From a virus (lineage: Duplodnaviria; Caudoviricetes), in the IMG/VR virus record IMGVR_UViG_3300044695_004869: 64,000 nt of DNA. The stretch is one strand, 5' to 3'. Shown one piece after another: positions 1 to 31,629 of the stretch (the first letter of the stretch is position 1; each line of letters opens with the position of its first letter). The notes below the pieces were generated by a model, which was given only the letters and a program-made list of their open reading frames with translations, did no database searches and was not told where the DNA came from. Made by a program: the position numbers and the translations under genes.

Positions 1-3000
1 CCGTTGGTTCCATTCGTACCTGACGTACCATTAGTACCATTTGTTCCGTTAGTTCCATCTGTTCCTGAAGTTCCGTTAGTTCCATTCGTACCGTTTGTTC
101 CATTCGTACCGTTTGTTCCACTAGTCCCGTTGGTACCCGAAGTTCCATTAGTTCCGTTAGTCCCTGACGTACCATTTGTACCATTGGTTCCTGATGTTCC
201 ATCAGTACCGCTTGACCCTGAAGTACCGTTGGTACCACTTGAACCATTCGTTCCGTTTGTACCTGAAGTTCCATTCGTACCATTCGTACCCGAAGTTCCA
301 TTAGTACCGTTAGTACCGTTAGTCCCCGACGTACCATTAGTTCCGTTAGTCCCTGAAGTTCCGTTTGTACCATTCGTACCGTTTGTTCCTGAAGTACCGT
401 TTGTTCCTGATGTTCCGTTTGTTCCATTAGTACCTGACGATCCATTCGTACCATTCGTACCTGAAGTACCGTTAGTTCCGTTCGTACCTGAGGTTCCATT
501 AGTACCGGAAGTCCCATTAGTTCCGTTCGTACCATTAGTACCGCTAGTTCCTGAAGAACCACTTGTTCCATTAATTATACCTAACGTAGTTTGACCATAT
601 GAATAATGAGTTGTACCTTCGGTTACGAAAGTAATTGTATGTGATTGATTTGAGGTATTTGTAGCTCGAACTTTAACAAATATCCTATCTGTTGTATTGA
701 TTGAAAATCCTCCTTGAAATCCATCAGATAATACCATTGATGGGTTTGGTGAATTTGTTGTTACAGGTGCTGGGTCTGTTGAAAATAATAAAGTTTCAGT
801 CCCACCTGTTGTTCTTGAATAAACTTCACAGAATATATCAAAACTTGCATTATTGTTTTCTTTATACGCGTGTAAGAAGAAAGACCAAATTCCCGCAGGT
901 ATGGTTGATACATTCGGATAAGTTGAGGGTGTTAAATATGATTGAATAGTTGATGTTACACCATTCGCAATAGTAACCGTAACTGTTTGTTGCGACCCTG
1001 ATGTCGGTATTGGTGAAAATTCTTTATAAGGGGTTTGTGTTACTGATTCGTTAAAGAAATAAACAGCACCACCTGAAATACCATTAACACCGCTAGTACC
1101 GTTCGTACCATTAGTTCCCGATGTTCCATTAGTACCATTCGTACCTGAAGTTCCATTTGTTCCGTTAGTACCACTTGTACCATCTGTCCCATTAGTTCCA
1201 TTCGTACCGTTTGTTCCGTCAGTACCATTGGTTCCTGAGGATCCGTTTGTACCTGAAGTTCCATCCGTTCCGTTCGTACCATTTGTTCCATTCGTACCTG
1301 AAGTTCCATTCGTACCTGAGGTCCCGTTAGTTCCATTCGTACCGTTTGTACCATTTGTTCCTGAGGTTCCGTTTGTTCCTGAGGTTCCGTTTGTTCCATT
1401 GGTTCCTGAAGTCCCATCCGTTCCGTTCGTACCATTTGTTCCACTAGTCCCGTCAGTTCCATTTGTTCCTGAAGTTCCATCCGTTCCATCCGTTCCGTTC
1501 GTACCATTTGTTCCACTTGAACCATCTGTACCATTTGTTCCACTTGAACCATCTGTACCATTAGTACCTGAAGTTCCGTCAGTCCCATTTGTTCCACTTG
1601 AACCATCTGTACCATTAGTTCCGTTTGTACCTGATGTTCCATTAGTTCCGTTTGTACCTGATGTTCCATCGGTTCCATTTGTTCCTGAAGTTCCATTTGT
1701 ACCATTGGTTCCTGATGTTCCATCTGTACCGTTTGTTCCGTTTGTTCCATTGGTTCCTGAGGATCCGTTTGTTCCATTGGTACCTGAAGTCCCATTTACT
1801 CCGGATATTCCACTAGTTCCATCTGTCCCACTCGTTCCGTCTGTTCCGCTCGTACCATTTGTTCCGCTCGTGCCATCTGTACCGCTCGTACCATCTGTAC
1901 CGTTTGTTCCGCTTGTACCATCTGTTCCGCTCGTGCCATCTGTTCCGCTCGTGCCATCTGTTCCGCTCGTACCATCTGTTCCGTTGGTTCCTGAAGTTCC
2001 ATTAGTACCACTTGACCCATCTGTTCCATTAGTTCCTGATGTTCCGTCTGTACCATTAGTCCCTGAAGTACCATTTGTTCCACTTGACCCATCCGTACCA
2101 TTAGTTCCGCTGGTTCCGTCGCTACCACTAGTACCATCTGTTCCGTTTGTTCCTGAAGTTCCGTCAGTTCCCGACGTTCCATTAGTTCCGTCAGTACCGC
2201 TAGTACCATCTGTTCCGTTTGTTCCTGAAGTCCCATCAGTTCCGTCAGTACCACTAGTTCCATCAGTACCATCAACACCTGAAAGACCACTTGTTCCATC
2301 TGTACCACTACTTCCATCCGTACCGCTAGTTCCATCGGTACCATTAGTTCCGTTTGTACCATTCGTTCCTGACGTTCCATCCGTTCCTGACGTTCCATCC
2401 GTACCTGAAGTTCCATCCGTACCGTTTGTACCGCTAGTTCCGTCTGTTCCTGAACTTCCATCCGTTCCACTAGTTCCGTCAGTACCATTAGTTCCACTAG
2501 TTCCGTCAGTCCCACTAGTTCCGTCAGTTCCACTAGTACCGTCAGTTCCACTAGTTCCGTCAGTACCACTAGTTCCGTCAGTACCATTCGTTCCGTTTGT
2601 TCCTGAAGTTCCATCTGTACCGTTTGTGCCCGAACTACCATCCGTACCATTAGTTCCGCTAGTTCCGTCCGTACCATCTGTCCCGTTAGTCCCCGAAGTT
2701 CCGTCTGTACCGTTTGTTCCACTAGTTCCATCTGTCCCACTCGTTCCGTCTGTCCCCGAAGTTCCGTCTGTTCCATTAGTTCCGCTTGAACCATCTGTTC
2801 CATTAGTTCCGCTTGTACCATCTGTTCCATTAGTTCCGCTCGTACCATCTGTTCCGTTCGTTCCATTAGTACCATTAGTTCCCGATGTTCCATCTGTCCC
2901 TGAAGTTCCATCCGTTCCGTTTGTTCCACTTGTACCATCCGTTCCGTTAGTACCTGAAGTACCATCTGTTCCATTTGTTCCGCTTGAACCATCCGTTCCA

Positions 3001-4901
3001 TTAGTACCTGATGTTCCGTCTGTACCGTTGGTTCCTGAAGTTCCATCTGTACCATTTGTACCATTTGTACCTGAAGTCCCATCCGTTCCACTTGAACCAT
3101 TTGTTCCATCAGTTCCCGAACTACCATTTGTACCATCAGTGCCGCTAGTTCCATCTGTACCTGAAGTACCACTCGTTCCATCGGTTCCGCTAGATCCATT
3201 TGTTCCATCAGTACCTGAAGTACCATCTGTTCCGCTTGAACCATCCGTGCCGTTTGTTCCTGAAGACCCATTTGTTCCATCTGTTCCGCTTGTCCCGTCA
3301 GTCCCTGAAGACCCATTAGTACCATCTGTTCCGCTTGTCCCTGAAGTACCGTCAGTTCCTGAAGTACCGTCAGTTCCGTTAGTTCCACTTGTGCCATCAG
3401 TTCCGCTAGTTCCATTTGTACCATTAGTTCCATTTGTACCGCTAGTGCCATTGGTACCATTAGTTCCTGACGTTCCATTGGTACCATTAGTTCCTGACGT
3501 TCCATCCGTTCCATTAGTACCGTTTGTTCCCGATGTACCATTCGTTCCGTTTGTTCCGTTAGTACCATTTGTTCCTGAAGTTCCATTTGTACCATTAGTC
3601 CCTGAAGTTCCATCCGTACCATTAGTCCCTGAAGTTCCATCCGTACCATTAGTTCCGCTAGTTCCGTCCGTTCCTGAAGTACCATCAGTTCCACTAGTTC
3701 CATCTGTTCCGCTTGTTCCATCAGTTCCACTAGTACCATTTGTTCCATTTGTCCCTGAAGTCCCATCAGTACCACTTGTTCCATCAGTACCACTTGTTCC
3801 ATCTGTACCGTTAGTTCCTGAAGTTCCGTCTGTTCCTGAAGTTCCGTCTGTTCCTGAAGTTCCGTCCGTACCTGAAGTTCCATCTGTACCACTTGTTCCA
3901 TTGGTACCACTTGTTCCATCGGTACCACTAGTTCCGTTTGTACCATTAGTTCCACTTGAACCATCCGTACCATCTGTACCGCTTGTTCCATCTGTACCGC
4001 TTGTTCCATCTGTACCACTTGTTCCATCTGTACCGCTTGTTCCATCTGTACCGCTTGTTCCATCTGTTCCGCTAGTTCCATTAGTACCGCTAGTTCCATC
4101 TGTTCCGTTAGTTCCACTTGTCCCATCGGTACCGCTAGTTCCATCTGTTCCACTAGTACCATTTGTTCCTGAACTACCATCTGTACCATCTGTACCATCT
4201 GTACCGCTAGTACCATTTGTACCACTAGTTCCGTTTACTCCTGAAATTCCGCTTGTACCATCTGTTCCGCTCGTACCATCTGTTCCTGAAGTACCGTTAG
4301 TCCCTGAAGTTCCGTTAGTCCCTGAAGTTCCGTTGGTTCCGTTTGACCCATCCGTCCCATTTGTTCCAGAACTTCCATTAGTACCATTTGTACCTGAAGT
4401 TCCGTCGGTACCATTAGTTCCTGAGGATCCGTTTGTTCCATCAGTTCCCGATGTCCCATTAGTACCTGATGTTCCGTTGGTACCTGAAGAACCGTTCGTT
4501 CCGGAAGATCCATTAGTTCCCGAAGAACCGTCAGTTCCGGAAGATCCTGATGAACCACTAGTTCCATCTGATCCATTCGTCCCATTCGTTCCATTAGTAC
4601 CTGAAGTACCATCTGTTCCGTTAGATCCGGAAGTTCCATCAGAACCCGAAGTACCATCTGTCCCTGATGTTCCGTCTGTTCCTGATGTTCCATTATTACC
4701 ACTGGTTCCATTTGTACCTGATGTACCATTAGTACCTGATGTGCCAACACTTGAGATTGCCGCACCTACTTGTGCGATTGTTGCTTTATAAGAAGATCCT
4801 GCCGGATTTTGGGACGTGTCACCAGTGATAACGATATGTATTAAATCATTAAGTGATACACCTGTGGCAATTGTCCTATCCGTCAGTCGTTGAAATCCCA
4901 T
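1..4901 (-). CDS. Giant collagen-like (Gly-X-Y) Thr-rich protein, >1633 aa, runs off the left edge; probable fibre/virion surface protein
   Basis: Manual translation from ATG 4901: MGFQRLTDRTIATGVSLNDLIHIVITGDTSQNPAGSSYKATIAQVGAAISSV, then GTSGTNGTSGTDG... In frame at positions checked (4901, 1082, 569, 11). A ~170-aa non-repetitive domain at 1079-570 (ISGGAVYFFNESVTQTPYKEF...GQTTLGIIN) reads without stops. The + strand shadow ORFs have Pro at every third residue (the reverse complement of Gly GGN). TATTTAT motif upstream at 4917-4923. Confidence 0.92.
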   Translation of the reverse strand, partial: MGFQRLTDRTIATGVSLNDLIHIVITGDTSQNPAGSSYKATIAQVGAAISSVGTSGTNGTSGTNGTSGNNGTSGTDGTSGTDGTSGSDGTSGSNGTDGTSGTNGTNGTNGSDGTSGSSGSSGTDGSSGTNGSSGTNGSSGTNGTSGTNGTSGTDGTNGSSGTNGTDGTSGTNGTNGSSGTNGTDGSNGTNGTSGTNGTSGTNGTSGTDGTSGTDGTSGISGVNGTSGTNGTSGTDGTDGTDGSSGTNGTSGTDGTSGTDGTSGTNGTDGTSGTNGTSGTDGTSGTDGTSGTDGTSGTDGTSGTDGTSGTDGTDGSSGTNGTNGTSGTDGTSGTNGTSGTDGTSGTDGTSGTDGTSGTDGTSGTNGTDGTSGTDGTSGTDGTSGTNGTNGTSGTDGTSGTDGTSGTDGTSGTDGTSGTNGTDGTSGTNGTDGTSGTNGTNGTSGTNGTNGTNGTNGTSGTNGTNGTDGTSGTNGTNGTSGTNGTNGTSGTNGTNGTNGTSGTDGTSGTNGTDGTSGTDGTSGTSGTDGTNGSSGTDGTSGTDGTNGSSGTNGTDGSSGTDGTSGTDGTNGSSGTDGTSGTSGTDGTSGTDGTNGSSGTDGTNGSSGTDGTSGTNGTNGTDGTSGTNGTDGTSGTNGTDGSSGTNGTDGTSGTNGTDGTSGTNGTDGTSGTDGTSGTNGTNGTNGTDGTSGTNGTDGTSGTNGTDGSSGTNGTDGTSGTDGTSGTDGTSGTNGTDGTSGTNGTDGTDGTSGTNGTDGSSGTNGTDGTSGTNGTNGTDGTSGTDGTSGTDGTSGTDGTSGTDGTSGTNGTDGTSGTDGSSGTDGTSGTNGTDGTSGTDGTSGTDGTSGTNGTNGTNGTDGTSGTDGSSGTDGTSGLSGVDGTDGTSGTDGTDGTSGTNGTDGTSGTDGTNGTSGTDGTSGTNGTDGTSGSDGTSGTNGTDGSSGTNGTSGTNGTDGTSGTNGTDGSSGTNGTSGTNGTDGTSGTDGTSGTDGTSGTDGTSGTNGTDGTSGTDGTSGTNGTSGTDGTSGTDGTSGISGVNGTSGTNGTNGSSGTNGTNGTNGTDGTSGTNGTNGTSGTNGTDGTSGTNGTNGTSGTNGTNGTDGSSGTNGTDGTSGTNGTDGSSGTNGTDGSSGTNGTNGTDGTDGTSGTNGTDGTSGTNGTNGTDGTSGTNGTNGTSGTNGTSGTNGTNGTNGTNGTSGTNGTSGTNGTNGTNGTDGTSGTNGSSGTNGTDGTNGTNGTNGTDGTSGTNGTNGTSGTNGTNGTSGTNGTNGTSGVNGISGGAVYFFNESVTQTPYKEFSPIPTSGSQQTVTVTIANGVTSTIQSYLTPSTYPNVSTIPAGIWSFFLHAYKENNNASFDIFCEVYSRTTGGTETLLFSTDPAPVTTNSPNPSMVLSDGFQGGFSINTTDRIFVKVRATNTSNQSHTITFVTEGTTHYSYGQTTLGIINGTSGSSGTSGTNGTNGTNGTSGTNGTSGTNGTNGTSGTNGTNGSSGTNGTNGTSGTNGTSGTNGTNGTNGTSGTNGTNGTSGTNGTNGTNGTSGTNGTNGTSGTNGTNGSSGTNGTSGSSGTDGTSGTNGTNGTSGTNGTNGTSGTNGTSGTNGTNGTNGTNGTNGTSGTDGTNGTNGTNGTSGTNGTN
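3970..4059. repeat. Near-perfect 18-bp tandem repeat (ccatctgtaccgcttgtt x ~5) inside the collagen gene
   Basis: Copies at 3970, 3988, 4006 (one variant), 4024 and 4042. Similar 18-bp runs near 1860-1980 and 2500-2580. Confidence 0.8.
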
Positions 4902-4935
4902 TATATATTTTTATTAATAAATATCGTAAAAATGA

Positions 4936-5244
4936 TTATTGGTCTTGGAAAATGAAAATCTCCGCATCCATATACAAGAATATTTCACCATCCTCAAATA
5001 TTTTACCCTTAGTAATACCTTGACAATAGATTATACCGAATAATTCACAACCAACAGAGTCAATCATTTTTAATCCAACCGCAGGGGCACCATTAAATTG
5101 TGGTGGTAATGTAATGATTAATGGAAATGTTGCTGTAGAAGGTATGGTGGCAATTAAAACACATTGATTACCATAAACGTCACAAGCGTAAAGAGTATAC
5201 GGATATGCTGATCCCGTTATGGAATTTATTTGGATTTGTGTCAT
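4936..5244 (-). CDS. Hypothetical protein, 102 aa (likely virion-associated)
   Basis: Clean ORF co-oriented with fibre genes; TATTTATA motif at 5249-5256 just upstream. Confidence 0.8.
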   Translation of the reverse strand: MTQIQINSITGSAYPYTLYACDVYGNQCVLIATIPSTATFPLIITLPPQFNGAPAVGLKMIDSVGCELFGIIYCQGITKGKIFEDGEIFLYMDAEIFIFQDQ

Positions 5245-5276
5245 ATCCTATAAATAGTTGAAATATAGAATTACAA

Positions 5277-8200
5277 TTAAATATATTTTCTATAATCGGC
5301 ATTATAGTTTTGTAATACCTCTGATGAGGTAAGTGCCGTATTATATAAACGAGTAATACCAATTTTTCCATCAAACCATTGAGAATACTCACCACCATTG
5401 TAACTACCAATGTAAAGTGGGTTATCCGTGTTTAGTATACTTGCCAAACTATGGCTCACACTTCCTATACTTACACCATTTACAAATGTTTCAAGTGTAT
5501 TAGACGAAACATTAGTAAACACATAAACTATCTGATACCAAGTACCAATCGTTCCAACGTAGTTTGTACTATTAACAAATAACGTTGACCCAGCACCACT
5601 ACCTGAACCTAATTGAGCGTAGTATGTGGTATTAGTTGTTCTGATACTATAACTTACATCTATAGTTAACCCTCCATTATCAAATTTTCCAAGTACAACA
5701 TCATTACCTAAAACCGATTGATTAACCCACACTTCCATAGTCCAATCTCCACTTCCTGGTTCTAATAATGTATTATCATCAACTCTAACTTGTGATGAAG
5801 TTCCATTATATGAAAAATATGGTGATGTATATGTAATACCCGACATTGAACCATTTAATCCATTTCCTGATAAATCATTTATTGTTGTACCAGTACCAGG
5901 GTAACTTGATAAATTACTTGGGTCATAATATAAAACAATATTTCTTAAAACAGGTTCGTTTGTTGGAGTACCGGTTGGTGTCGGTGTAGTCGTGTTAGTG
6001 GGAGTATTAGTATTAGTAATAGTTGGTGTTACTGTTGGGGTTGATGTTATGGTATTTGTTGGTGTGGGAGTAGGTGTTACTTCAATAAATCTTGGGGCCA
6101 AGAAGTTATATTGTTGAGTTATTTCAGAAAGTGATAATTGTCTATTATAGAAAAACATATTGGCAACATATCCAAATGGTTGACTTGGTCCCTGATTATT
6201 ACCCCAAGTCCAATGTGTGGTACCACCCGCACCAAAAGAAATAGGATCACCGACTTCTATATTATTAATGTAGAATGTTTGTGATGAACTATCCCCGACC
6301 ACTGAGTACTGAACCCAAAGATCAGTTTGACCAGATAAATCATATCCAGAACTTCTAAATTCAGTATCCCAATAACCCAACGTATTTGTTCCATTAGGAA
6401 TTGTAATTGGCGTGTATATAGGTGTGTTTGTGGTAAGTAGTGTTCTAAATGATGCGATATTGTCTGAATCTAATCTAGACCAAGTAATATATGTATATCC
6501 CGATGTTGGTAAGGTAGGGCCTGTTCCATTTACAACAACCTTATTAGTTCCTGTCGTACAATCAAAACATTTTATTCCATTAAGAATTGTGTAGGTTGCA
6601 CCTGTTAATGTGTGGTCATACGTTCCTGGTGTTTGTAAGTTAACAACGTTCGTTCCTGAACCCGAATAACTTAACTCATCATACGCGTCTAATCGTATAA
6701 TTAATCCGGATGTGACCAAGTTTGGTGTTGATGTTAATGTTGGGGTATTAGTTGGTGTTGTTGTTAAAGTTGGTGTATTAGTTACTGTTGGTGTAGGTGT
6801 GTTAGTTGGAGTGTTAGTTGGAGTTTCAGTTATTGTGGGGGTGGGTGTATTAGTTGGAGTATTTGTTGATGTTATAGTTGGCGTATTTGTTGGAGTATTT
6901 GTTGATGTTATAGTTGGCGTATTTGTTGGAGTAATTGTGCTTGTGTTTGTTGGTGTATTAGTTGGAGTTGTTGTTGGAGTATTGGTGGAAGTTATTGTTG
7001 GGGTTGGTGTAATAGTTGAAGTTACTGTTGGGGTGTTGGTTGGTGTTGGTGTTACAATTGGAGGATTAAAAACATAAGAAGTGTCAATTGAGAATGACAT
7101 TTCACCATCGTAAATAATACTAAAATCGTCAAATACTGATTCACCATTCAGTAGAGAATAATCAGTATCGGTTATTTGAATAATAGACCCATTAGTTTCT
7201 CCTGCCAATATGGATATTGACGTATCAATTTGAATTGGGTCTCCCGATGTTAAATATATATAATTTCTTAAAATTAAAATAATATCTTTTTCAAGAGGTT
7301 GATCCATGTATAATTCATAGAGAGAGGATACCGAACCAGATGAATATGTTGCAAATAAAACAAAAGACACAGAATTAACAGGGAATGAATCTGTACATAT
7401 TGATAATAAAGAACCGCTACTAACACCACTACCTGTTATTGTAAGTGATGTAAAGTTGACAGAATTTTGTATTAAGAATTTACCCCCACCTCCGGTAATA
7501 GGAGCTCCCGCACCGGAAAGAATTTGATTTCCTGATATTGTCGTAAAACAACTTGATGGTGATGAAATTGTTGGTATTCCCGTACCTGTATTAGTAGTGA
7601 AAACAAAATTTTCATTGTTAAGTTGTCCTGTTGCCGTTAAAAATATTGTAATATTATTTACAGGAGAACTAAAATTCATTGTATAACTAAATGGACCATT
7701 TTGACCTAACCATCTTGAATTTGCGGGAGTTGTAACATTACCACAACTAGTAAATGGATTTGCGTGTAATCCAACTGAACCGGTAAACGAATCGGTTATT
7801 GTTATTCCATTTATTGTTGTTGGAGGTACAACACTTGAATTACATGACAATACAGGTATTGATGGTTGAATTGAATCTGTACATATATCCATATAAGTAC
7901 CACCAAGTCCTCCGGGACCCACAACGGTTAATGTTGTGAAAGAGGTTGAATTAGATATTTTAAAAATACCATTTCCGGCGGTACCTAAAGGGGTAAAAGG
8001 AGAGCAAGTTGGTGAAGTATATGCTGCCGTTATTGTATTACCGCTAATAATTGCGCAACAATAGTTACAAGATGATATTGAGGGAATCCCACTACCGGTA
8101 TTTGTTGTAAATGTAAATGATTCTACAATTGTTGTACCAGAATCGTATCCATATAATCTTATTACAATATCATTTACAGGTACACTGAACGATAATGTAT

Positions 8201-9074
8201 ATGTAAATGGACCGACAGGACCGGGGGTGCAATTTCCTAACCAAATAGTGTTAATACTTGAAATAGGGGGAGGGAGTGGACACCCCATCCCAAGACCAGA
8301 ATTTGGGTACGATCTAACACAACCGGTACTTGAGGCGTAAATTGTTACACCATTATATGTTACGGAATTACCCGATTGTGGTAACAATCCGGCGGTTGTA
8401 CAAGACGGACAAATAGGTGTTGATGTTGGTGTTGGCGATGGCGGTGTATTTGTTGGTGTTAAAGTCGCGGTTTTAGTTGGAGTGTTTGTATTTGTTGGTG
8501 TATTTGTTGGAGTTGCAAAAGGGAATGATAAGGTCGGTGTAGGTGTTTGAGTGGATGTTGGTGTTGGATAACATAATCCAGATGTTGGTGTAGGACTTAT
8601 TTTCGGTGTTTTGGTTGGAGTTGGAGTTTTACTTGGTTGAGGACATCCACATGGGTTTGTACAAGTTTCACTTGGTGTCGGAGTATTAGTTGGAGTTATT
8701 GTTGGTGTTGATGTAGTTGTTGGAGTTGGGGTTGGTATTTTACATGGATCAACGGTTAAAGTAGGTGTCACAGTTGGAGTAACTGATGGTGTTTGTGTTC
8801 TTGTAATTGTAGGAGTCGGTGTTGGTGTAGGTGTAGGTCTAACAACTTGCATTATATTCGGACAATCCGTATTACAACTTCCATCAGTACCTAAAACTAA
8901 AATTGTGTACGTACCATATATTTCTCTTGGTGGATTTAATAATGATGAATCAAACAAATATGGTAAAAGATGATTACCCAAATTAATAACAACATTGTCA
9001 TTATCAGGTTTGAATAAAATGGTTGCAATTTGACCATTGAATGTAATACTACTTATTAATATGGTTTGACTCAT
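5277..9074 (-). CDS. Pro/Thr-linker multidomain protein with two C-terminal LamG/ConA-like domains and a tandemly duplicated beta domain; probable virion surface protein
   Basis: 1265 aa; several PTPTPT/TNTPT tracts; LamG-like motifs (WTMEVWVN...WYQIVYVF...YVNG...LYIGSY...[24 protein letters not shown]); upstream TATTTATA at 9086-9093. Confidence 0.82.
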
Positions 9075-9108
9075 CTTCGTTTACATATAAATACATTCCT
9101 GAATTATT

Positions 9109-12100
9109 TTATATGAAATAATTCGGATCAACAATATTTCCATTAGGGAAAGATGCGTTAACCTCATATATTAAAGTACCACTTGGCCATGAGTCCCATA
9201 AGTTAAAATATGTTGGGTTATTAGGGTCGGTAGGTTGTATCCAATATGACCCAAAACTTTTAGTGAAATATTGTACCTCTTTTAACCCATTTGGATTTAT
9301 AAAATTCACAAAATCCATCCAACCAAAATCACAAGTAGTTGCCGATAAACTTGGTATAACCGTAAGAGGGTTTCCTGAATATGGTATTGTTTGTGTTGAA
9401 TAATATGGTATGCTTAAACCCGCCCCACCAAAATAACCCAAAGGTTGTGATGGGGTATAACTATTAATTTTTACGTAATTAGCAAATGGATTGTCAAACC
9501 TTAACCCATTGTTTGTGGTGGTATTTATATTTGGTGAAGAAACAGAATTGTTTATTATTTGGGTGTAAGAATCAGTAATTGCATAACAATTATTACAATT
9601 GTTTAATGGATATTGATTTGTTATATTTGCCAAATTAATTGTCATTGTGTATGCTCCCGGACCACCTCCTGTGGTTACAACTGAGGTTGGGTGTATATTA
9701 TAATTGGTAACAGTATATTGATTATCACCACAAGTACTTATTGATGATAAAGGAATAATATGTCGGAATACAATGTATGTATAATATTGAATTGTTGTTG
9801 GTAAAGGTGGGGTAGGTGACCAACCTGTTGAATTATACGTTGATATATAACTGTTATAATAAACGTCACGATCACTTATAGATGAACAAGTTATTGTTAT
9901 TATTGATCCTACTTTTGTGACATTAATGGTATTACCTGTTGCCTGACAATTTGATGGTGGACCATAACCAACACCACTACAGTTCGGGTTAAATGAGGTA
10001 AAATTATTACCATTAAAACCTCCAAGAGCGTAGTAAGTTGAGTATGGATAATATGCGGTACCGTCTGAACTATTAAATGTTGGTAAGTATTGATTTGTTA
10101 CGGAATGCATGAATTTGAAAATGTCTTCGTTATCGTATGAAGGACAACCAATAACCGTACCTTTTACATTTAAAATATTACAAATTGGATCCGCAGAAAA
10201 AGTAAGTGTTGATGCCGATATTTTGAAAGGTGTATTAGTTGATAAACAAGTATCACAGTCAAAACTTTCTAAACAAGTAAAATATAAATCCCAACTAGTT
10301 TGTGTTATACCTGAATTTGGTATTACTTCTAATATTAAATAATCACCATTATTAATAACGAAATTACTCAAATTGATTGGTTTTGCATAATAGGATGGGG
10401 CTTGACCCGTTTCTAAACGTTTAGGTATTGTATTAACAGATAAGTCACTGTCTCCCGGAACAGATTGACCGGTTGTTAAATATTCAACAACAATAGGACT
10501 ATTATAGTTAGTTCCGTCTTGGTTTACAAATGTTATTTTTAATGTGTCAGGAATTGACTCACCTTTGAATGCATATGCAAAATAAGGTTGTGTAGGATCC
10601 AAAGCAAATGTTGTGGATAAAGTACCAGCGGGAACTAAAGAACCTGGAGAGGTAATATATGATTTTCTACACTTATAATGACCAACTTCTGTACAATTTT
10701 CACAACTAAAAGATTGTACTGTTATATCAAGATTAGTAAAACAATCCAAATTGGCCTCTGTTGTACCACTTGCCCCTGTTGAAGTATATGTTATACCATT
10801 AATTATAATTGCTTGAAGAACTGGGGTATATTGTCCGGCCGGTAAAGGTGGCGATCCTGCACCTGTTAATGGGTGTGTAACAGTGTATGGTGTGAAACCA
10901 GCAATCAAAGGTCCAAATCCACTTACAAGTTGGATATTACCTAAAGAATCGTACCAATAAATAACATATGATGTAATAGAACCACAACCACCTGTTATAC
11001 TACCCACAACTAATTGACCAACCGTATTTGAACTATATGTGTCAAACCCTAACCCACATGGTGGTCCACATAAATTATTTGTGTTGTTTGGTGATAGTGT
11101 AATTGTTGGAGTTGGAGTATTAGTTGGTGTTTTTGTTGGGGTTGGGCTAACAATTTGAGTATTTGTTGGGGTTGGTGTTGGTGTTATAATAATATCTGAA
11201 ATAAAATTATCCACAGGACAAATGTAAGTATTACAATCAGGGCAGTCAGGGTCGAACATATTGAATCTGTCTTTTAATATTTTGAAATTGTGTTTTACTT
11301 CAGACGCATCTAATGGATCAATATACATTCTGAATTGTGAAATGCCACCTTCAAAAGTACCACCAAAATTTTGTTCTAATAATATATTAGTTCTCATTCC
11401 TGCCAATGTTGTCCCACTAAGAACATTCGGTGGGAATAATTCGGGGTCTTGAATATAATCAGTGTAAGGTAAAGTACAAGATGAGAAAACTAAATTTTCT
11501 CGTAACCCTTGAGTTCCCCCACCCCAAGATATATTAAAAGGTACACCAATTTGTCTTTCTTTATCAGTATCTAATGGTCTTGGTATAATTTCCTCAAAGT
11601 TTTCAATCGTAAAGAAAGGTTTTCCATTTACGTAGATTTTTAATCTACCCATTCTAAACTCTAAATCATTTAACCATTTTTGGTTAAGCTTTACTAATTC
11701 TATTTGTTCAGGATCAATACTACAATTTTCGTGAGTGTACGGAGGTTTTATTAATTTTGTGGTATCATTTACTAATGAATCCAAATATTTTATTTCTGTT
11801 ATATCTCCTAACCCTCCTCTCCATTGTAGATCACAAGTATCTAACCAAGTATAACGTCTCCAAACGACATCAACCATCAACCATTTTTCAACATCAAAAA
11901 ATTCATTACATTTTGTTAAACAATAATCATATATCCCATTTGGAGAGCAATATGTGTCGATTGTGTATCCTGTCATATGTGTTATACCTGTTGTAGCACA
12001 ACTTCCTGTTGTAACACAGTCACCGGTAAATCTTAATGCTTTTACACATATTCTTGGGTTTCTTGGATCCCCTGAAAATTTAACAGAAAATGCGTTAGAC

Positions 12101-13398
12101 AATGAATCCCATAAAGGATCTTTTTCACAAGTATCTTCTATTGAGGTATACCCTGTGGTTGCACAAGTAATACAATCGATACATTCATCACACGTATCAC
12201 AATCAGGACATTCATGTTCACATACCGGTGTGGTTTCACAATAAATAGGTGTAGGTGTTGGGGTAGGTGTTGGGGTAGGACTTGGTTCACATGGTTTACA
12301 CAATAATGGTACAATTGGCATTGGTGTTGGTGTAACACCTGTTATTAATGCACATGGGTGAGTTTTACATTCCCATCCACAAGTACCGCAAGGTTCCTCA
12401 CCACAATCACAACCACAATAACGTTTTTGTTCTTTACAAACGTCACATCCATAATTAAGGTGGTAATCATGAATTCCATCAACAGATCTTGGTGGATATA
12501 CAAATATACATCTACTATTTGTTACTCCTGTATTACAACAAGCACAAGTTACTAAACAATCTGCTAAATCAGAAGTAACTCTTGTATATCCCGTGAAACA
12601 TTTTGGGTGACCATCAGCGTGATGATAAAATTTATTTTCCGCTCTCGTACCTAAATAGAAAAAAGTATTTTTATTATCGGGATAAATTTCATTAAGTGTT
12701 GTTTCTCCCGTTGAAATAATTTTGTCGTTTAAAATTCTCGGTTTCAATAACATTTCAACTGACCAACCCTTGTTGGTTCTTTCAGGTAAAACTTCATAAT
12801 CATAACCAAATAATTTGTAAAACCCTTGATAAAACCCACCATATAACTTATGAAACTTTCCAACATTTGGTTCTGTTGCACTTTCTATTTCATATAATGT
12901 AGTTTTAGAGATACCTGAAAATCTATTATATTGCGAAGTATATCCCGTAACTTGGAACATCTTCATTCTTCTATCAAAATAAGTTCTTTGGAATTTTTCA
13001 GTTTGATTAAATAATCCATTAGTAAATGTGATTGTTTGACCAACTAAAGATGTTACCAAACCATTGTCCATTCCGACTAAACCTATATCACAAGCACTTT
13101 GAGCACTAAAACAAGTAAGATCTAAATTATCGGGGTTATAATAGTTTTCAGAAACAACTAAATTTCTAAAATCATATTGACCATAAGTGAGTGTTAAATT
13201 TTGTCTGGTGTTTGAACTATTTAAATCATAATAAACAGGTAATCTATTACCATATGTTTGTGCAATAAGATACGGGGAAAACACAACCTCTTGGTTGTAG
13301 TCCACCTCATCAGACGCTAAAGACATATCTGACGAATCCAACGCAAAACTTATTTTTAGTTTCGAGTACACATATTGATTAATGTTCTGTTGTGCCAT
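9109..13398 (-). CDS. Large Cys-rich, Pro/Thr-linker protein (1429 aa), probable structural protein
   Basis: Long ORF; LamG-like remnant (FGGTFEGGISQFRMY); PT tracts; Cys cluster; upstream TATTTAT at 13409-13415. Confidence 0.78.
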   Translation of the reverse strand: MAQQNINQYVYSKLKISFALDSSDMSLASDEVDYNQEVVFSPYLIAQTYGNRLPVYYDLNSSNTRQNLTLTYGQYDFRNLVVSENYYNPDNLDLTCFSAQSACDIGLVGMDNGLVTSLVGQTITFTNGLFNQTEKFQRTYFDRRMKMFQVTGYTSQYNRFSGISKTTLYEIESATEPNVGKFHKLYGGFYQGFYKLFGYDYEVLPERTNKGWSVEMLLKPRILNDKIISTGETTLNEIYPDNKNTFFYLGTRAENKFYHHADGHPKCFTGYTRVTSDLADCLVTCACCNTGVTNSRCIFVYPPRSVDGIHDYHLNYGCDVCKEQKRYCGCDCGEEPCGTCGWECKTHPCALITGVTPTPMPIVPLLCKPCEPSPTPTPTPTPTPIYCETTPVCEHECPDCDTCDECIDCITCATTGYTSIEDTCEKDPLWDSLSNAFSVKFSGDPRNPRICVKALRFTGDCVTTGSCATTGITHMTGYTIDTYCSPNGIYDYCLTKCNEFFDVEKWLMVDVVWRRYTWLDTCDLQWRGGLGDITEIKYLDSLVNDTTKLIKPPYTHENCSIDPEQIELVKLNQKWLNDLEFRMGRLKIYVNGKPFFTIENFEEIIPRPLDTDKERQIGVPFNISWGGGTQGLRENLVFSSCTLPYTDYIQDPELFPPNVLSGTTLAGMRTNILLEQNFGGTFEGGISQFRMYIDPLDASEVKHNFKILKDRFNMFDPDCPDCNTYICPVDNFISDIIITPTPTPTNTQIVSPTPTKTPTNTPTPTITLSPNNTNNLCGPPCGLGFDTYSSNTVGQLVVGSITGGCGSITSYVIYWYDSLGNIQLVSGFGPLIAGFTPYTVTHPLTGAGSPPLPAGQYTPVLQAIIINGITYTSTGASGTTEANLDCFTNLDITVQSFSCENCTEVGHYKCRKSYITSPGSLVPAGTLSTTFALDPTQPYFAYAFKGESIPDTLKITFVNQDGTNYNSPIVVEYLTTGQSVPGDSDLSVNTIPKRLETGQAPSYYAKPINLSNFVINNGDYLILEVIPNSGITQTSWDLYFTCLESFDCDTCLSTNTPFKISASTLTFSADPICNILNVKGTVIGCPSYDNEDIFKFMHSVTNQYLPTFNSSDGTAYYPYSTYYALGGFNGNNFTSFNPNCSGVGYGPPSNCQATGNTINVTKVGSIITITCSSISDRDVYYNSYISTYNSTGWSPTPPLPTTIQYYTYIVFRHIIPLSSISTCGDNQYTVTNYNIHPTSVVTTGGGPGAYTMTINLANITNQYPLNNCNNCYAITDSYTQIINNSVSSPNINTTTNNGLRFDNPFANYVKINSYTPSQPLGYFGGAGLSIPYYSTQTIPYSGNPLTVIPSLSATTCDFGWMDFVNFINPNGLKEVQYFTKSFGSYWIQPTDPNNPTYFNLWDSWPSGTLIYEVNASFPNGNIVDPNYFI

Positions 13399-14868: not shown

Positions 14869-14869
14869 T

Positions 14870-15810: not shown

Positions 15811-15813
15811 AAA

Positions 15814-16407: not shown

Positions 16408-16431
16408 AACAATTCATAATTTAATTTATTT

Positions 16432-16460: not shown

Positions 16461-16470
16461 ATTTTTGGGG

Positions 16471-16501
16471 TTGATATTAATCTATTAATTGATTATATTT
16501 C
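16471..16501 (+). promoter_or_regulatory. Host-type promoter for the glycosylation island
   Basis: TTGATA-N17-TATATT; equivalently TTG-N20-TATATTTC (near-match to Bacteroidota TAnnTTTG); ATG at 16522. Confidence 0.55.
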
Positions 16502-16521
16502 TAATAAATTTATATTTTATT

Positions 16522-17736
16522 ATGACAAAAATTAATGTATTAGTTCTCCCAAGTGACAAATCTGGTGTAGGAAAGTTTAGGTCAGTTGACCCCCATGTTA
16601 TGTTACAAAATATGTATCCTGAAGATTTTCATATAGACATTGACTACGAACCAAAAGTTATGGATCAAAACTATTGGAAAAAATATCAAATTGTACACGT
16701 ACATAGAAATATTGGGCAGACGTATGAAGAGACACCAAAATTGATTGAGTGGTTAAAATCAAATGGTATTATAGTAATTGTTGATATTGATGATTATTGG
16801 TTACCGACAAAAGAACACCCAATACACCAATTAATTATACAAAATAAAATTCATCAAAAAATTATGGATAATTTAAAGGTTGCATCTTATGTTACAACTA
16901 CAACTAAATTATTTGCAGATGAGATTAGAAAATATAATAAAAATGTTGAGGTATTTGCTAACGCCATTAACCCGAAAGATCCACAGTTCAATGAACAAAC
17001 ATTATCATCTGACAAAATAAGAGTTGGTTGGTTAGGTGGGTCATCTCACCTTCACGATTTAAAATTGATGAGTGGGTTTGTTTCAAAATTATCTCCACTA
17101 CAAGATAAATTACAATATTATGTTTGTGGTTTTGATACAAGAGGTACGGTTACGGAAATTAATAAGGAAACAGGTCAACAGACACAAAGAGCAATTAAAC
17201 CTGAGGAAACTGTTTGGGCAAGATATGAAGAAATTTTCACCGACAATTATAAAATTGTAACACCAAAATATAAGGAATTCTTAAGTAAGTTTGAAGAAAA
17301 AGAATTTTTTGGGTGGGAAAATGAAAACTATGTAAGAGTATGGACAAGACCTGTTACAACTTACGCAAAAAACTACGCTAAATTTGATATCTCATTGGCC
17401 CCAATCCAAAACCACATATTCAATAGAATGAAATCTCAATTAAAAGTTATTGAGGCAGGATTCTATAAGAAAGCATTAATTGCTTCTAATGTGGGTCCAT
17501 ATACGATTGATTTGAAACACGCATTACACCAAGGTCAATTTACGGATGGAAATGCATTATTAGTAAATGAATCAAACAACCATAGTGATTGGGCAAAAAA
17601 TATAAAAAAATTAGTAGAAAACCCAAGTATGATAGTTGATTTGGGTGAACGATTATATGAAACAGTTAAAGATAGATACGATCTTAATAACGTAACAAAA
17701 GAAAGAGCAGAATTTTACAAATCCTTAATTAAATAA
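16522..17736 (+). CDS. GT-B (GT4-like) glycosyltransferase
   Basis: VIVDIDDYW, VRVGWLGGSSHLHDL, FDISLAPI..HIFNRMKSQLKVIEAG...LIASNVGPY. Start moved to ATG 16522. Confidence 0.8.
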   Translation: MTKINVLVLPSDKSGVGKFRSVDPHVMLQNMYPEDFHIDIDYEPKVMDQNYWKKYQIVHVHRNIGQTYEETPKLIEWLKSNGIIVIVDIDDYWLPTKEHPIHQLIIQNKIHQKIMDNLKVASYVTTTTKLFADEIRKYNKNVEVFANAINPKDPQFNEQTLSSDKIRVGWLGGSSHLHDLKLMSGFVSKLSPLQDKLQYYVCGFDTRGTVTEINKETGQQTQRAIKPEETVWARYEEIFTDNYKIVTPKYKEFLSKFEEKEFFGWENENYVRVWTRPVTTYAKNYAKFDISLAPIQNHIFNRMKSQLKVIEAGFYKKALIASNVGPYTIDLKHALHQGQFTDGNALLVNESNNHSDWAKNIKKLVENPSMIVDLGERLYETVKDRYDLNNVTKERAEFYKSLIK

Positions 17737-17739
17737 AAA

Positions 17740-18459
17740 ATGATTAACGTACCAATTACAAAAATTTTATTCCTTGATATTGAAACAGTTGGAATATCAA
17801 AAGATTATGACACTTGTGTAAAAGAATATCCAAGATTAGGTGAACAATTTGACAAATACTTTGATTGGTTCTTAAAAAGATTTCCGGAAGACCAATTGAT
17901 TGGTAAGAATGAAAACGAAAGAAAGAATTTAATCTTCTCAACAAGAACCGCATTGGTCCCTGAATTTGCTAAAATTGTTTGTGTGAGTGTTGCTTTCGTA
18001 ACAGATAAGAATGAAGTTAAAAAACAAACATTCTCAAACGATAATGAAGAAACACTTTTAAGTGAACTTCAAACATTGTTAAATCGTTGTGGTAAATTAG
18101 ATTTCCATTTATGTGGTCATAACTTAAAGAATTTTGATATTCCAATGATTGCTAAACGTATGATTATTAATGGATTAAAACCATCATCAATTTTACCATC
18201 ATATGATACTAAACCTTGGGAGATCAAAGCAATTGATACTAAAGATGTTTGGCAATATGGTGCATATACCGCAATCGGATCATTGGACTTAATGTGTTCG
18301 GCGTTAGATATTCCAACACCAAAAGGTGGGGAAGTAACGGGAGATAAAGTTCATGATTGTTATTGGAACAAAGGTATGTTAAAAGAAATTGGGGAATACT
18401 GTGAACGAGATGTTGAGGTTCTGATTGATGCAATCATAAAATTAAAACAATTAAAATAA
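17740..18459 (+). CDS. 3'-5' exonuclease (PolB-exo-like, DnaQ superfamily)
   Basis: LFLDIET (ExoI), CGHNLKNFDIP (ExoII), YCERDV (ExoIII). Confidence 0.85.
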   Translation: MINVPITKILFLDIETVGISKDYDTCVKEYPRLGEQFDKYFDWFLKRFPEDQLIGKNENERKNLIFSTRTALVPEFAKIVCVSVAFVTDKNEVKKQTFSNDNEETLLSELQTLLNRCGKLDFHLCGHNLKNFDIPMIAKRMIINGLKPSSILPSYDTKPWEIKAIDTKDVWQYGAYTAIGSLDLMCSALDIPTPKGGEVTGDKVHDCYWNKGMLKEIGEYCERDVEVLIDAIIKLKQLK

Positions 18460-19067
18460 TGAACGATAATAAAGTTGATGAGTTTGAGGAAATGCTCAAA
18501 CGAGTTAGTACTCTTGAGGCAGCGTTAGATGATGATGGTGAAATAGAAATTGATTATGATTCCATAATCCAAGAATTTGGTTTAGATGTTGAGGAATTGG
18601 AAAGAGCAATGGAATCCATGCAACCCACAATTAAATTACATTATAGTAAATCTAATTCAGGATCAACATCCCCATCATACGCATACCAAACAGATTCGGG
18701 AATGGATTTATTTTCTACCGAATCAATCACATTAAAACCTTTTGGTAGAGGTTTGATCCCAACGGGAATACATTTTGATATACCTGAAAATTATGAAATA
18801 CAAGTTAGATCAAAAAGTGGTTTGGCATTAAATCAAGGATTGATGGTTTTAAATTCTCCCGGCACTGTAGATCAAGGATATACTGGTGAAATAAAAGTTA
18901 TAATGTTTAACACGACTAGTAATCCCGTAGAAATTAAACAAGGTCAGAAAATTGCTCAAGCAGTTATGACACCTGTAGTTTGTGGTAAATGGATTGAATT
19001 AACTGAAGTGGATAATGTTACCTCGAAAGATAGAGAGGATAAAGGGTTTGGAAGTACAGGAATATGA
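18459..19067 (+). CDS. dut: dUTPase (trimeric) with acidic N-terminal extension
   Basis: DSGMDL, RSKSGLA, PGTVDQGYTGEI, KIAQAV, REDKGFGSTG motifs. Confidence 0.93.
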   Translation: MNDNKVDEFEEMLKRVSTLEAALDDDGEIEIDYDSIIQEFGLDVEELERAMESMQPTIKLHYSKSNSGSTSPSYAYQTDSGMDLFSTESITLKPFGRGLIPTGIHFDIPENYEIQVRSKSGLALNQGLMVLNSPGTVDQGYTGEIKVIMFNTTSNPVEIKQGQKIAQAVMTPVVCGKWIELTEVDNVTSKDREDKGFGSTGI

Positions 19068-20455
19068 TTACGATTGGATATAGTACAAAATCAACAAAAC
19101 CAAATTTTATAAGTCACATAAAAGAAACTTGTGGTTTAGACAATGTCCAAATCATTGAGAAAATTAATAATGGTGATAAATGTTTATCTGCAACTTATAA
19201 TGAAATTTTGTCCGAAAGTTTAAATGATATTGTTGTTTTATGTCATGACGATATAATATTTGAAAAACCATATTGGGCAAAAAGAGTTATTGAACATTTC
19301 ACAAAGAGACCTGAATTTGGGGTTCTTGGAGTTGCGGGAACAAGATACTATCCTTCTACTGGTATGTGGTGGGAAATTACTTCTGAAATGGTTGGTCAGG
19401 TTTACCACAAACATAATGGTAAAAAATGGTTATCATCATATAACGATCCTTTTGGAAACAAAGTTATTGACACCGTTATTATTGATGGTGTTTTTATGAT
19501 GATAAATAAGAAAAAAATATTTACAACATTCAATGAAGAAGTTGAGGGGTTTCACTTTTATGATACCACATTTTCATTTGAAAATCATATTAACGGAGTT
19601 AAGGTTGGTGTAGTTTCAAATATCCCAATTACTCACCTATCAATAGGTATGACGAACGATCAATGGAATAAAAATAGAGAAAAGTTTATTGAAAATTATA
19701 AGGATCACTTACCTAATATTTTAGAGAATAACCTACCGGTTAATCCCCAAAACAAAAAACTTCCTTTGGTCTCTGTAATTATGCCAGTTTATAATTATGG
19801 AAAAATGTTTCAAAAATCTATTGAGTCGGTATTCAACTCAACTTATAAAAACTTTGAACTAATCATTGTTAATGATGGGTCTACAGATGAATATATTATA
19901 AATAAATTAAATTCTCTATCTAACCACCCTAATATAAAAATTATTAATCAAGAAAATGGTGGTCCGGCAAACGCAAGAAATAACGGAATAAAAAATTCAA
20001 ATGGAGAATATATTTTACCATTAGATTCTGATGACATGATCTCCGCAGAATATATTCAAACTTGTGTTAATATTATTAGAAAAGATAAAAAAATTAGTCC
20101 TGTATATTGTGATACAAATCATGTTGGTCAAATAAGTGGGGTTGAGAATAGACCTGAATGGTCAAAAGAAAGATTAATACAAGGTCCATTTATTGTTAAT
20201 TGTTCAATGTTTACAAGAGAATCTTTTGAAATGTGTGGAGGATATGATGAGGAAATGAAAGGATGGGAAGATTATGATTTATGGGTTAGAATGATGAATA
20301 ATGGTTTTGTTGGTAAAAGAATACCAAAACCATTGTTTACCTACTATCACCACGAAAAAGATGGGACCGTGTCAACAGAAGCAAATAAAAATACGAAAGA
20401 ATTATATGAATATATAATGTCTAAAAATAATATATTTAAAAATGAAAATAACTGA
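19064..20455 (+). CDS. Two-domain GT-A glycosyltransferase (GT2-like plus GT2)
   Basis: N-terminal domain VLCHDD...GFHFYD; C-terminal domain VSVIMPVYN...IVNDGSTD...PLDSDD...WEDYDLW. Confidence 0.88.
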   Translation: MITIGYSTKSTKPNFISHIKETCGLDNVQIIEKINNGDKCLSATYNEILSESLNDIVVLCHDDIIFEKPYWAKRVIEHFTKRPEFGVLGVAGTRYYPSTGMWWEITSEMVGQVYHKHNGKKWLSSYNDPFGNKVIDTVIIDGVFMMINKKKIFTTFNEEVEGFHFYDTTFSFENHINGVKVGVVSNIPITHLSIGMTNDQWNKNREKFIENYKDHLPNILENNLPVNPQNKKLPLVSVIMPVYNYGKMFQKSIESVFNSTYKNFELIIVNDGSTDEYIINKLNSLSNHPNIKIINQENGGPANARNNGIKNSNGEYILPLDSDDMISAEYIQTCVNIIRKDKKISPVYCDTNHVGQISGVENRPEWSKERLIQGPFIVNCSMFTRESFEMCGGYDEEMKGWEDYDLWVRMMNNGFVGKRIPKPLFTYYHHEKDGTVSTEANKNTKELYEYIMSKNNIFKNENN

Positions 20456-21071
20456 TTTTTTTGATAAAACATTTTGCATTAATTTAGAAAGAAGATCTGA
20501 TAGATGGGAAGAATGTCTTATAGAGTTTAATAAATACGGATTAACAAATATTAATCAATTTAATGCTGTTGACGGTAAAGAATTACCACAGGTCATATCA
20601 GGGTTTGTTACACCATCAAGATTGGCATTAGTTTTAACTAATATGAAAATACTAGAAGAAGCGTTAGAAAATAATTATAAATCAATATTAATTTTAGAAG
20701 ATGATGTTGAATTTAACCATCAAGTTATTGATATGGAAGATTATTTTAAAATGTTACCCGATGATTGGGATATGTTATATTTTGGGGGCAACCATAATAC
20801 TCACATGAATGTAAAACCCCCAATTATAGTTAATGAAAAAGTTTGTAAATTACATAAAACATATAGTACTCATTGTGTTGCAATTAATGGTAAATCAATT
20901 AGTAAAGTGTATGATAGAATAAAAAAACGTGATAATGCTCTTGATGTTATTTATGTTGAGTTACAAAATACGTTAAACGTCTATTCATTTTATCCTATGA
21001 TTGCAACTCAGAGAGTTAGTTTTAGTGATATTGAAAATAGAGTAACTGATTATAAATGGTTAATAAAATAA
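20442..21071 (+). CDS. GT25 family glycosyltransferase
   Basis: FCINLERRSDRW...ILILEDDVEF...DWDMLYFG. Confidence 0.82.
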   Translation: MKITDFFDKTFCINLERRSDRWEECLIEFNKYGLTNINQFNAVDGKELPQVISGFVTPSRLALVLTNMKILEEALENNYKSILILEDDVEFNHQVIDMEDYFKMLPDDWDMLYFGGNHNTHMNVKPPIIVNEKVCKLHKTYSTHCVAINGKSISKVYDRIKKRDNALDVIYVELQNTLNVYSFYPMIATQRVSFSDIENRVTDYKWLIK

Positions 21072-21073
21072 TT

Positions 21074-22917: not shown

Positions 22918-22918
22918 T

Positions 22919-27942: not shown

Positions 27943-27943
27943 A

Positions 27944-28915: not shown

Positions 28916-28928
28916 TAAATAAAAATTA

Positions 28929-30562: not shown

Positions 30563-30566
30563 ATAT

Positions 30567-31628: not shown

Positions 31629-31629
31629 T

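Follow-up and report, generated by a model that had tools for sequence, protein, structure and literature searches.

A giant proline-free collagen-like gene in a freshwater T4-like phage, a putative O-glycosylated virion fibre of a kind linked in related phages with a TibC/Aah-type heptosyltransferase

At one end of a 64,000-nucleotide (nt) stretch of virus DNA (IMG/VR record IMGVR_UViG_3300044695_004869; hereafter the window, meaning the whole stretch), the minus strand carries the 5' part of a very long gene whose product consists largely of proline-free Gly-Thr-(Ser/Asn/Asp) triplets. Judged from its gene content, the window belongs to an uncultured freshwater T4-like phage. We propose that the gene is a late phage gene for a homotrimeric, O-glycosylated virion fibre of collagen type, a reading to which we give even chances. 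In related phages, genes of this kind are linked with genes for heptosyltransferases of the TibC/Aah family.

That a long proline-free collagen-like gene is hidden on the minus strand had been claimed from the letters of the DNA alone, and this sequence-only reading is borne out. The frame is stop-free over its 1,633 codons and runs off the window start (Table 1); an in-frame stop, which had been named beforehand as fatal to the claim, was looked for in 3-4901 (minus strand) and none was found. A head of 52 amino acids (aa) precedes 409 uninterrupted Gly-X-Y triplets (block 1, where about 407 had been counted), a globular insert of 165 aa (estimated earlier at about 170), which we will call the knob, and a second run of triplets (block 2). 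The plus-strand open reading frame (ORF) at 1228-4791 is an antisense shadow, and Pro, which had been said to stand at every third position of this shadow, occupies 98.7% of one phase.

The Pfam Collagen family (PF01391) matches the fibre with 643 bits against a cut-off of 27. In block 1, position X is Thr in 367 of 409 triplets (90%) and Ser in 32, while position Y is shared by Ser (156, 38%), Asn (134, 33%) and Asp (118, 29%). In block 2, as read over 626 triplets on a longer contig (L001), Y is Asn (67%) or Ser (33%) and almost never Asp, so that block 2 is uncharged; block 1 is acidic. Asp, with about 120 residues nearly all in block 1, is the only charged residue of the repeats, and Pro, Lys and Arg are absent from all of the ~1,035 triplets, which thus show neither the imino-acid nor the KGD/KGE composition that stabilises collagens. 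The 11 Pro residues among the 1,633 aa in the window are confined to the head and the knob. Gly makes up 33.3% of the repeats. Block 1 has a single Gly-Gly pair, in the GGA that ends it; the part of block 2 that was read has no such pair. Autocorrelation of the Y position up to a lag of 40 triplets revealed no super-period or turn motif beyond the triplet in the 409 + 626 triplets. Neighbouring triplets of block 1 carry the same Y residue less often than expected (0.13 observed vs 0.34), and Y-position Ser recurs mostly every two to three triplets along the fibre, adjacent gaps accounting for 7 of 155 in block 1 against a random expectation of about 59. The motif SGT occurs 343 times in fibre aa 1-3,322, and TSGTN is among the commonest pentapeptides.

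The fibre frame is a real gene under selection, neither a chance frame nor a shadow. Two natural variants, L001 and L004, show 704 differences over 9,966 nt (7%), 65% of which fall on codon position 3 of the fibre frame. Synonymous and non-synonymous codon changes number 352 : 132 in this frame, compared with 28 : 489 and 33 : 470 in the remaining two sense frames. Not one of the ~1,035 Gly codons was altered, and the amino-acid changes are nearly all swaps among Ser, Asn, Asp and Thr at X or Y, with six exceptions from Thr to Ala, Val or Leu. The synonymous codons are mixed and exact repeats all stay below 150 nt; the gene is therefore not a recent slippage array. Contigs from the RNA libraries of four studies match parts of the knob with 98-100% identity, which is a weak hint of fibre transcription, since these contigs have no strand information and could reflect DNA carry-over.

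As had been supposed, the frame reaches past the window start. Longer contigs were traced through the 102-aa gene directly upstream of the fibre gene, which is carried by many public contigs. Gene calls give the full product 3,747 aa on two contigs, one from JGI (111.5 kb) and one from NCBI (94.9 kb), and 3,723 aa on a third; the window frame is the 5' 44% of the 3,747-codon gene. The DNA of L001 gives fibre aa 1-3,322, identical to the window over its 1,633 aa, and extends block 2 to at least 626 uninterrupted triplets. Exact-pattern scans of viral and metagenome contigs and a longer-protein search yielded nothing for the 3' end of the gene (last 425 aa). The collagen helix rises 0.286 nm per residue. 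If triple-helical, block 1 would therefore measure about 350 nm and block 2 at least 540 nm; block 1 is longer than the helix of type I collagen, as was pointed out earlier.

The head is shared by a large protein family. A full HMMER scan of 1.84 billion representative proteins (E<=1e-3, clusters at 50% identity) found it in 387 protein clusters, and all 150 matches listed fall inside the N-terminal ~58 residues (about residues 1-55 in 149 cases) of proteins of 58-1297 aa. In 12 of the best 150, the head leads straight into Pro-free G-T/S-S/N repeats at residue ~50; other head-bearing proteins continue into YadA-head-like repeats or end in Peptidase_S74 (for example P0136) or Peptidase_G2 (P0176). 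The latter two are intramolecular-chaperone domains typical of trimeric phage fibres and spikes. A conserved N-terminal module followed by differing distal domains, as in exchangeable trimeric phage fibres, was thus observed, and the head is probably the virion-docking module of such an exchangeable fibre family. No paralogue of the head was present elsewhere in the window or in the examined part of the related phage G001 (see below). Homologues of the 102-aa upstream protein (51%, 34% and 37% identity; three copies on two other contigs) are also encoded directly upstream of head-bearing fibre genes, and by this position the protein is a candidate adaptor or chaperone of the head. At another locus (L036:4387-5586), a short head-plus-collagen-like fibre of 524 aa (P0089) is directly followed by a PF11397 gene (N-acetylglucosamine (GlcNAc) transferase, GT60-type), by its family match a second kind of sugar enzyme adjoining such repeats.

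The AlphaFold2 model of the knob, built on a 38-sequence alignment, reached a predicted local distance difference test (pLDDT) score of 91.5. Its best solved match is the C-terminal jelly-roll of a CocE/PepX-type hydrolase (8yzn; Z 14.6, 161 residues, root-mean-square deviation 2.8), followed by carbohydrate-binding modules of several families (Z 7-9), and Foldseek likewise returned CocE C-terminal domains with a top query-normalised TM-score of 0.68 (4p08). We are confident that the modelled fold is a jelly-roll of the galactose-binding-domain or carbohydrate-binding-module type, which does not imply sugar binding; as modelled, the knob would fit a receptor-binding bead on the fibre. Two other assignments were rejected: i) a SEA domain (mouse 1ivz, profile E 6e-5), which fold searches did not back and which we took as compositional, and ii) a C1q-like head, as TNF/C1q-like trimeric jelly-rolls reach a TM-score of only ~0.3 in Foldseek. 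The 82 homologues of the knob lie inside proteins of 898-2858 aa, mostly without a collagen-like repeat. Two of them, P0003 and P0079, share the order repeat-knob-repeat as well as its junction, G-V/I-N-G-I/V-S-G-G ahead of a hydrophobic strand, and have Peptidase_S74 at the C-terminus. The syntenic place in a 180-kb contig of a related phage is taken by a fibre-like protein of 1,589 aa that has two knobs and no collagen repeat.

The enzyme came into view in G001 (IMG/VR 3300034062_003964), a relative whose knob is 99% identical and whose fibre has at least 3,263 aa. A 1,527-aa gene there runs towards the fibre gene and stops at a distance of 18 nt from the fibre stop. Its product combines a GT4 domain, a TibC/Aah domain and a C-terminal FkbM methyltransferase. 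The TibC/Aah domain scores 285 bits with the NCBIfam equivalog TIGR04414 (cut-off 200) and matches the TibC structures 4RAP and 4RB4 with E 1e-62. Among the functional residues named for TibC (Asp110, Thr226, Lys230, Trp305, Arg286 and the iron-finger Cys; PMC4358343), the catalytic Asp110, the sugar-binding Thr226, Lys230, Trp305 and all four iron-finger Cys are kept in the alignment. TibC heptosylates Ser, not Thr, at the sites NS*GG and VS*GTN (PMC4358343). Because of this specificity, and because VS*GTN resembles the TSGTN of the fibre, Y-position Ser would by analogy be a likelier sugar acceptor than Thr; the fibre offers such Ser in repeated Ser-Gly context, as do substrates of the BAHT (TibC/Aah) family. 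The earlier suggestion that sugars replace Pro in this protein thus gains genomic support from the linkage, while its choice of Thr as the acceptor does not agree with an enzyme that modifies Ser. N-linked sugars gained no support: the fibre contains 522 N-G-T sequons, but no N-glycosyltransferase family was matched among the window ORFs scanned against Pfam.

The linkage was examined from both sides. We collected 27 viral loci with a knob relative, 20 with collagen-type and seven with non-collagen flanks. The enzyme was present in 12 of the 20 and in none of the seven, the other eight collagen-type loci holding little DNA beyond the gene (Fisher p = 2e-5, yet with only ~7 vs 2 independent lineages). 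Ten of the 12 positive loci show the TibC domain itself; L009 and L025 show the FkbM end only, and L009 was confirmed via G001. In the other direction, relatives of the enzyme are encoded on at least 588 viral contigs. Around the best 80 of these loci, we searched within 10 kb for a Pro-poor G-T/S-x ORF of at least 16 triplets, which was found at 37 loci at a median distance of 2.5 kb; after clustering at 85% identity, 30 of the 44 informative clusters had the repeat gene. As a control, 80 terminase-centred loci of related phages (954 kb in all) were used, and none contained any run of at least eight triplets. For loci of at least 15 kb, the counts are 26/49 enzyme-centred vs 0/25 control (p = 1e-6), a contrast that is somewhat overstated because the control samples the head/packaging region and not other fibre regions. 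Where other phages have collagen-like runs close to the enzyme, Ser takes a median share of 64% at Y. Beside the enzyme gene of G001 (L035:6873-11023) there are also two small Laminin_G_3 proteins, a separate GT9 heptosyltransferase-like protein and a PA14/GLEYA lectin-like protein, by their domains a cluster of putative adhesins and sugar enzymes.

The fibre locus differs even between close relatives. In G001, the knob is followed by 861 uninterrupted triplets, the longest run seen, then by a 113-aa second globular bead, 20 triplets and a 320-aa C-terminal domain. By eye, without alignment, the bead resembles a stretch of P0089; the C-terminal domain had no family or PDB match. In G002, whose terminase is 96% identical, two genes occupy the slot, one encoding a 1,231-aa head-plus-repeat protein and the other a repeat protein of ~2,390 aa. 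With 3,723 or 3,747 aa in the called genes, at least 3,263 aa in G001 and two genes in G002, both the length and the number of genes at the locus vary among close relatives. Several IMG/VR contigs begin or end in or beside the fibre gene, probably an effect of short-read assembly breaking down in the repeats. Uninterrupted Pro-poor G-T/S-x runs of 834, 574 and 566 triplets were also noticed near TibC-like genes in the viral contigs L056, L066 and L049; giant repeats therefore recur in several lineages.

How could such a fibre work? The 52-aa head would dock it on the particle, perhaps aided by the 102-aa upstream protein. The two Gly-Thr-(Ser/Asn/Asp) segments would wind into a collagen-type triple helix, ~0.9 micrometre together, with a trimer of jelly-roll knobs between them and a distal C-terminal part after block 2. 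Dense O-glycosylation in the host cytoplasm would keep the Pro-free and salt-bridge-free helix soluble and stable, a phage heptosyltransferase of the TibC/Aah family (fused GT4 and FkbM) adding sugar to Y-position Ser every two to three triplets; low lake temperatures and trimeric nucleation domains could also compensate for the weak composition. A long flexible line might widen the capture radius in dilute lake water, the particle itself being ~0.2-0.3 micrometre, and the knob at ~350 nm and the tip may make the first, reversible contacts with host surface glycans. We favour the homotrimeric beaded rod on account of the conserved Gly register, Gly at exactly one residue in three, the lack of any higher period and the trimer-folding C-termini of relatives. 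The more specific proposal of a collagen triple helix of nearly 1 micrometre without imino acids or salt bridges, held by dense, extended and methylated Ser-O-heptosylation, is tentative, and we would sooner doubt it than assert it.

Several points weigh against the glycosylated collagen-type fibre. The protein was read over 3,322 of 3,747 aa, and its C-terminal 425 aa lie outside the stretch read. Its composition argues against a stable unmodified helix: in the host-guest peptides of Persikov et al. (2000), Thr at X and Ser, Asn or Asp at Y are reportedly among the weaker triple-helix formers. An unmodified helix is doubtful because known viral collagens have Pro and charges, because (Gly-Pro-Thr)10 is a random coil unless glycosylated with galactosyl-Thr, and because a survey holds that long collagens in general need Lys-Gly-Asp/Glu salt bridges (PMC11923368), of which the fibre has none. 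As for the enzyme, known TibC substrates are beta-helices, not collagen-like chains; Arg286 of TibC is Val in the G001 enzyme; such a repeat gene is missing near 14 of the 44 informative enzyme clusters; and the enzyme gene was seen beside the fibre in G001, not in this phage's own DNA as read. The strandless RNA-library contigs, with their possible DNA carry-over, belong to the same list.

The lack of imino acids and salt bridges to hold a helix would fit a chain that forms none, a glycosylated tether, either a mucin-like 'bottle-brush' or a single polyproline-II-like chain, which would owe its stiffness to sugars and its Gly spacing to enzyme recognition or flexibility. Ser at every two to three triplets, as though set by an enzyme, the mucin-like Thr/Pro tracts in neighbouring proteins and the coil formed by unglycosylated (GPT)10 (PMC11923368) are all consistent with it. 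However, a spacer would hardly need a register that is unbroken over 409 + at least 626 triplets and in which none of ~1,035 Gly is substituted at 7% divergence, and relatives of the same layout end in the trimer-folding Peptidase_S74. We consider such a tether unlikely, though the strongest of the rivals. A product that does not belong to the virion, for instance a sugar-coated matrix or decoy that is released, or a factor modifying the cell surface, would be compatible with the very large set of phage sugar enzymes, which could also act on host structures, and the putative placement on the virion is drawn from genomic context. Against this stand the head, which also occurs in proteins with C-terminal tail-fibre chaperone domains, the promoter-like motif, which structural genes have as well, and neighbours that match PHROG families annotated 'virion structural protein'; moreover, no N-terminal signal peptide was noticed on reading the head by eye, no predictor being used. 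Such a product is improbable in our judgement.

Two further structures had been put forward in the sequence-only reading. One is a set of polyglycine-II helix bundles with the chain folded back on itself, as in the snow-flea antifreeze protein or phage S16 gp38, for which Gly at every third residue and the small polar side chains could speak. Known bundles of this kind consist of helices of ~6-10 residues, with far more Gly, Gly-Gly pairs and regular turns. The fibre, in contrast, has Gly at exactly one residue in three, a single Gly-Gly pair in what was read of its two blocks, and neither a turn motif nor a super-period in its 409 + 626 triplets; besides, the beta-branched Thr in each triplet would crowd the helix-helix contacts. 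Although domains of this kind occur in a phage adhesin (10.1101/2023.11.25.568672), the suggestion did not hold up and we regard it as very improbable. The other is an ice-binding or antifreeze surface formed by regular Thr arrays, an idea prompted by Thr in almost every triplet and by the origin of the DNA from lake water. In a triple helix, though, Thr would wind around the rod and form no flat array, and the glycosylation linkage predicts a sugar-covered surface. Known Thr-based ice-binding faces are flat beta-solenoid surfaces. To this last idea we give next to no credence.

The assignment of the window to a T4-like phage is based on a Gp23-type major capsid protein (626 aa), a Gp20-type portal and a large terminase (Table 1). 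Among deposited capsid proteins, the closest come from an uncultured 484-kb phage (47%), from Microcystis phage Mel-JY01 and from Flavobacterium phage immuto. The best Pfam Gp23 stretch covers residues 361-611 of the capsid protein, and tblastn to known phages aligned about half of the query in two pieces; given this partial coverage, the protein seems to bear a large extra N-terminal or inserted part. A megablast comparison of the neighbouring genes with deposited phage genomes returned no match, and DNA of the phage is present in many lake-water metagenomes. The phage also encodes a ClpB/Hsp104-like double-AAA ATPase (57104-59167, plus strand), as does G001 (L035:346-2382).

Table 1. Features of the window that are discussed in the text, in order of position
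Feature	Position	Strand	Basis
Open frame of the fibre gene, 1,633 codons, stop-free, running off the window start	3-4901	-	translation
Start of collagen-like block 2, aa 1445-1633 in the window, 63 triplets	3..569	-	
Globular insert (knob), aa 1280-1444, 165 aa, non-repeat	570..1064	-	
Collagen-like block 1, aa 53-1279, 409 uninterrupted Gly-X-Y triplets	1065..4745	-	
N-terminal head module, aa 1-52, probable virion-docking anchor	4746..4901	-	
TATTTAT, 22 nt before the fibre ATG, candidate late promoter	4917..4923	-	
Conserved 102-aa partner gene directly upstream of the fibre gene, no family match	4936..5244	-	
1265-aa neighbour, Thr/Pro-rich tracts, C-terminal Laminin_G_3 (concanavalin-like lectin)	5277..9074	-	Pfam E 1e-23
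1429-aa neighbour, same transcription direction, same upstream motif, no family match	9109..13398	-	
Sugar-synthesis/glycosyltransferase island, 16 kb	16489..32436	+	family matches
Gp23-type major capsid protein, 626 aa	41044-42924	-	Pfam
Gp20-type portal	47028-48929		Pfam
Large terminase	49837-51600		Pfam

The heptamer TATTTAT lies 12-22 nt before the start codons of the fibre gene and of the three genes upstream of it (102, 1265 and 1429 aa; further sites at 5256-5262 and 9093-9099). It was found within 40 nt upstream (-12 to -39) of 16 of the 48 listed ORFs, including the portal, the terminase and other head-region genes, and before none of the plus-strand ORFs in 14401-33182, which include the sugar-enzyme genes. 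As a candidate late promoter it is unlike that of T4, TATAAATA. The common motif suggests late co-expression of the fibre with structural genes. One of the PHROG families matched by the 1265-aa neighbour bears the annotation 'virion structural protein', and the neighbour is probably a virion protein. It contains mucin-like Thr/Pro tracts (e.g. at about aa 117-175 and 1000-1040) before its Laminin_G_3 domain, which are possible extra sugar acceptors.

The sugar island encodes a GDP-mannose 4,6-dehydratase (27944-28915), an NAD-dependent epimerase/reductase (25124-26035), two DegT aminotransferases and a hexapeptide acyltransferase, together with glycosyltransferases of the families GT1/4, GT2, GT10, GT11 (GT10 and GT11 being fucosyltransferase-like) and GT25; it is interspersed with genes for a dUTPase, a PolB-type exonuclease and PhoH. 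The island is a possible source of further fibre sugars.

Over more than 1,000 triplets, the fibre departs from the composition that a triple helix is believed to require, having neither Pro/hydroxyproline nor Lys-Asp/Glu clamps. If it is folded, it would test ideas on the folding and stability of long collagens (PMC11923368), and its minimal repeat GTSGTN together with one enzyme could serve the design of sugar-stabilised collagen materials. If the proposal is true, sugars would join hydroxyproline and charge pairs as a third chemical means of stabilising collagen, collagen-like chains would be a new substrate class for autotransporter heptosyltransferases, and the fibre would be the longest appendage known on a phage particle. 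The findings point to fibres several times the particle length, serving as capture lines in dilute water, and to widespread self-glycosylation of virions by phage enzymes, and the quick change of length at the locus between close relatives is relevant to host range. In the literature searched, we found no paper on a phage collagen of this scale that is free of Pro and positive charges and has Thr at X, none on a phage collagen linked with an autotransporter-type heptosyltransferase, and none joining TibC or heptosyltransferase with 'collagen-like'.

Collagen-like phage fibres as such have long been known (PMC3368898; PMC1079782). EPclA, orf028 of P-SSM2 and the 'bacteriophage collagen' of Smith et al. 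(1998) likewise have a Gly-X-Y stalk between globular N- and C-terminal fibre domains. EPclA of E. coli O157:H7 was shown to be a trimer of rod-and-knob shape, up to ~62 nm long (PMC3368898), and Gly-X-Y triplets make up 49% of orf028 of the T4-like cyanophage P-SSM2, in which Pro, Ser and Thr are frequent at X and Y (PMC1079782). Pro occupies 22% of the X positions in viral collagen-like domains, where charged residues abound, and 48% in EPclA (PMC3368898, table 4). The present repeat, in contrast, contains no Pro, Lys or Arg at all and would span ~0.9 micrometre.

Collagen-like proteins without hydroxyproline are also represented by BclA of the Bacillus anthracis exosporium and by the cuticle collagen of Riftia, where O-linked sugars are thought to be stabilising (PMC8968730; PMC11923368). 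In these proteins, the acceptor is Thr at Y, usually after Pro (GPT), whereas here Thr stands at X, Pro is absent and the family of the linked enzyme acts specifically on Ser. The sugars differ as well, being rhamnose-based chains or galactose added by other enzymes in BclA and Riftia, and heptose by prediction here. The collagen of Mimivirus contains Pro and Lys, and the surface fibrils of this virus, which are glycosylated by enzymes of its own, are ~0.1 micrometre long. Like the present phage, Mimivirus is a large virus that has collagen-like proteins and its own enzymes for sugar synthesis and transfer; unlike it, Mimivirus infects eukaryotes and both hydroxylates and glycosylates its collagen (PMC8968730).

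For phage glycosyltransferases that are believed to act on their own virion, mycobacteriophages provide a precedent, although they are siphoviruses of Actinobacteria with different enzymes, the capsid as target and no collagen-like substrate. The tail tube is said to be a further target of their virion glycosylation. In a genome announcement, capsid glycosylation was deduced from the presence of two phage genes for glycosyltransferases (PMC11256854). The nearest enzymatic parallel is that of TibC/Aah with TibA/AIDA-I, in which a cytoplasmic enzyme hyper-glycosylates a repetitive adhesin at Ser before Gly, in a context similar to the TSGTN of the fibre (PMC4358343). There, the substrates are beta-helical passenger domains of secreted bacterial adhesins, whereas here the substrate would be a putative collagen-like phage fibre and the enzyme is fused to GT4 and FkbM domains.

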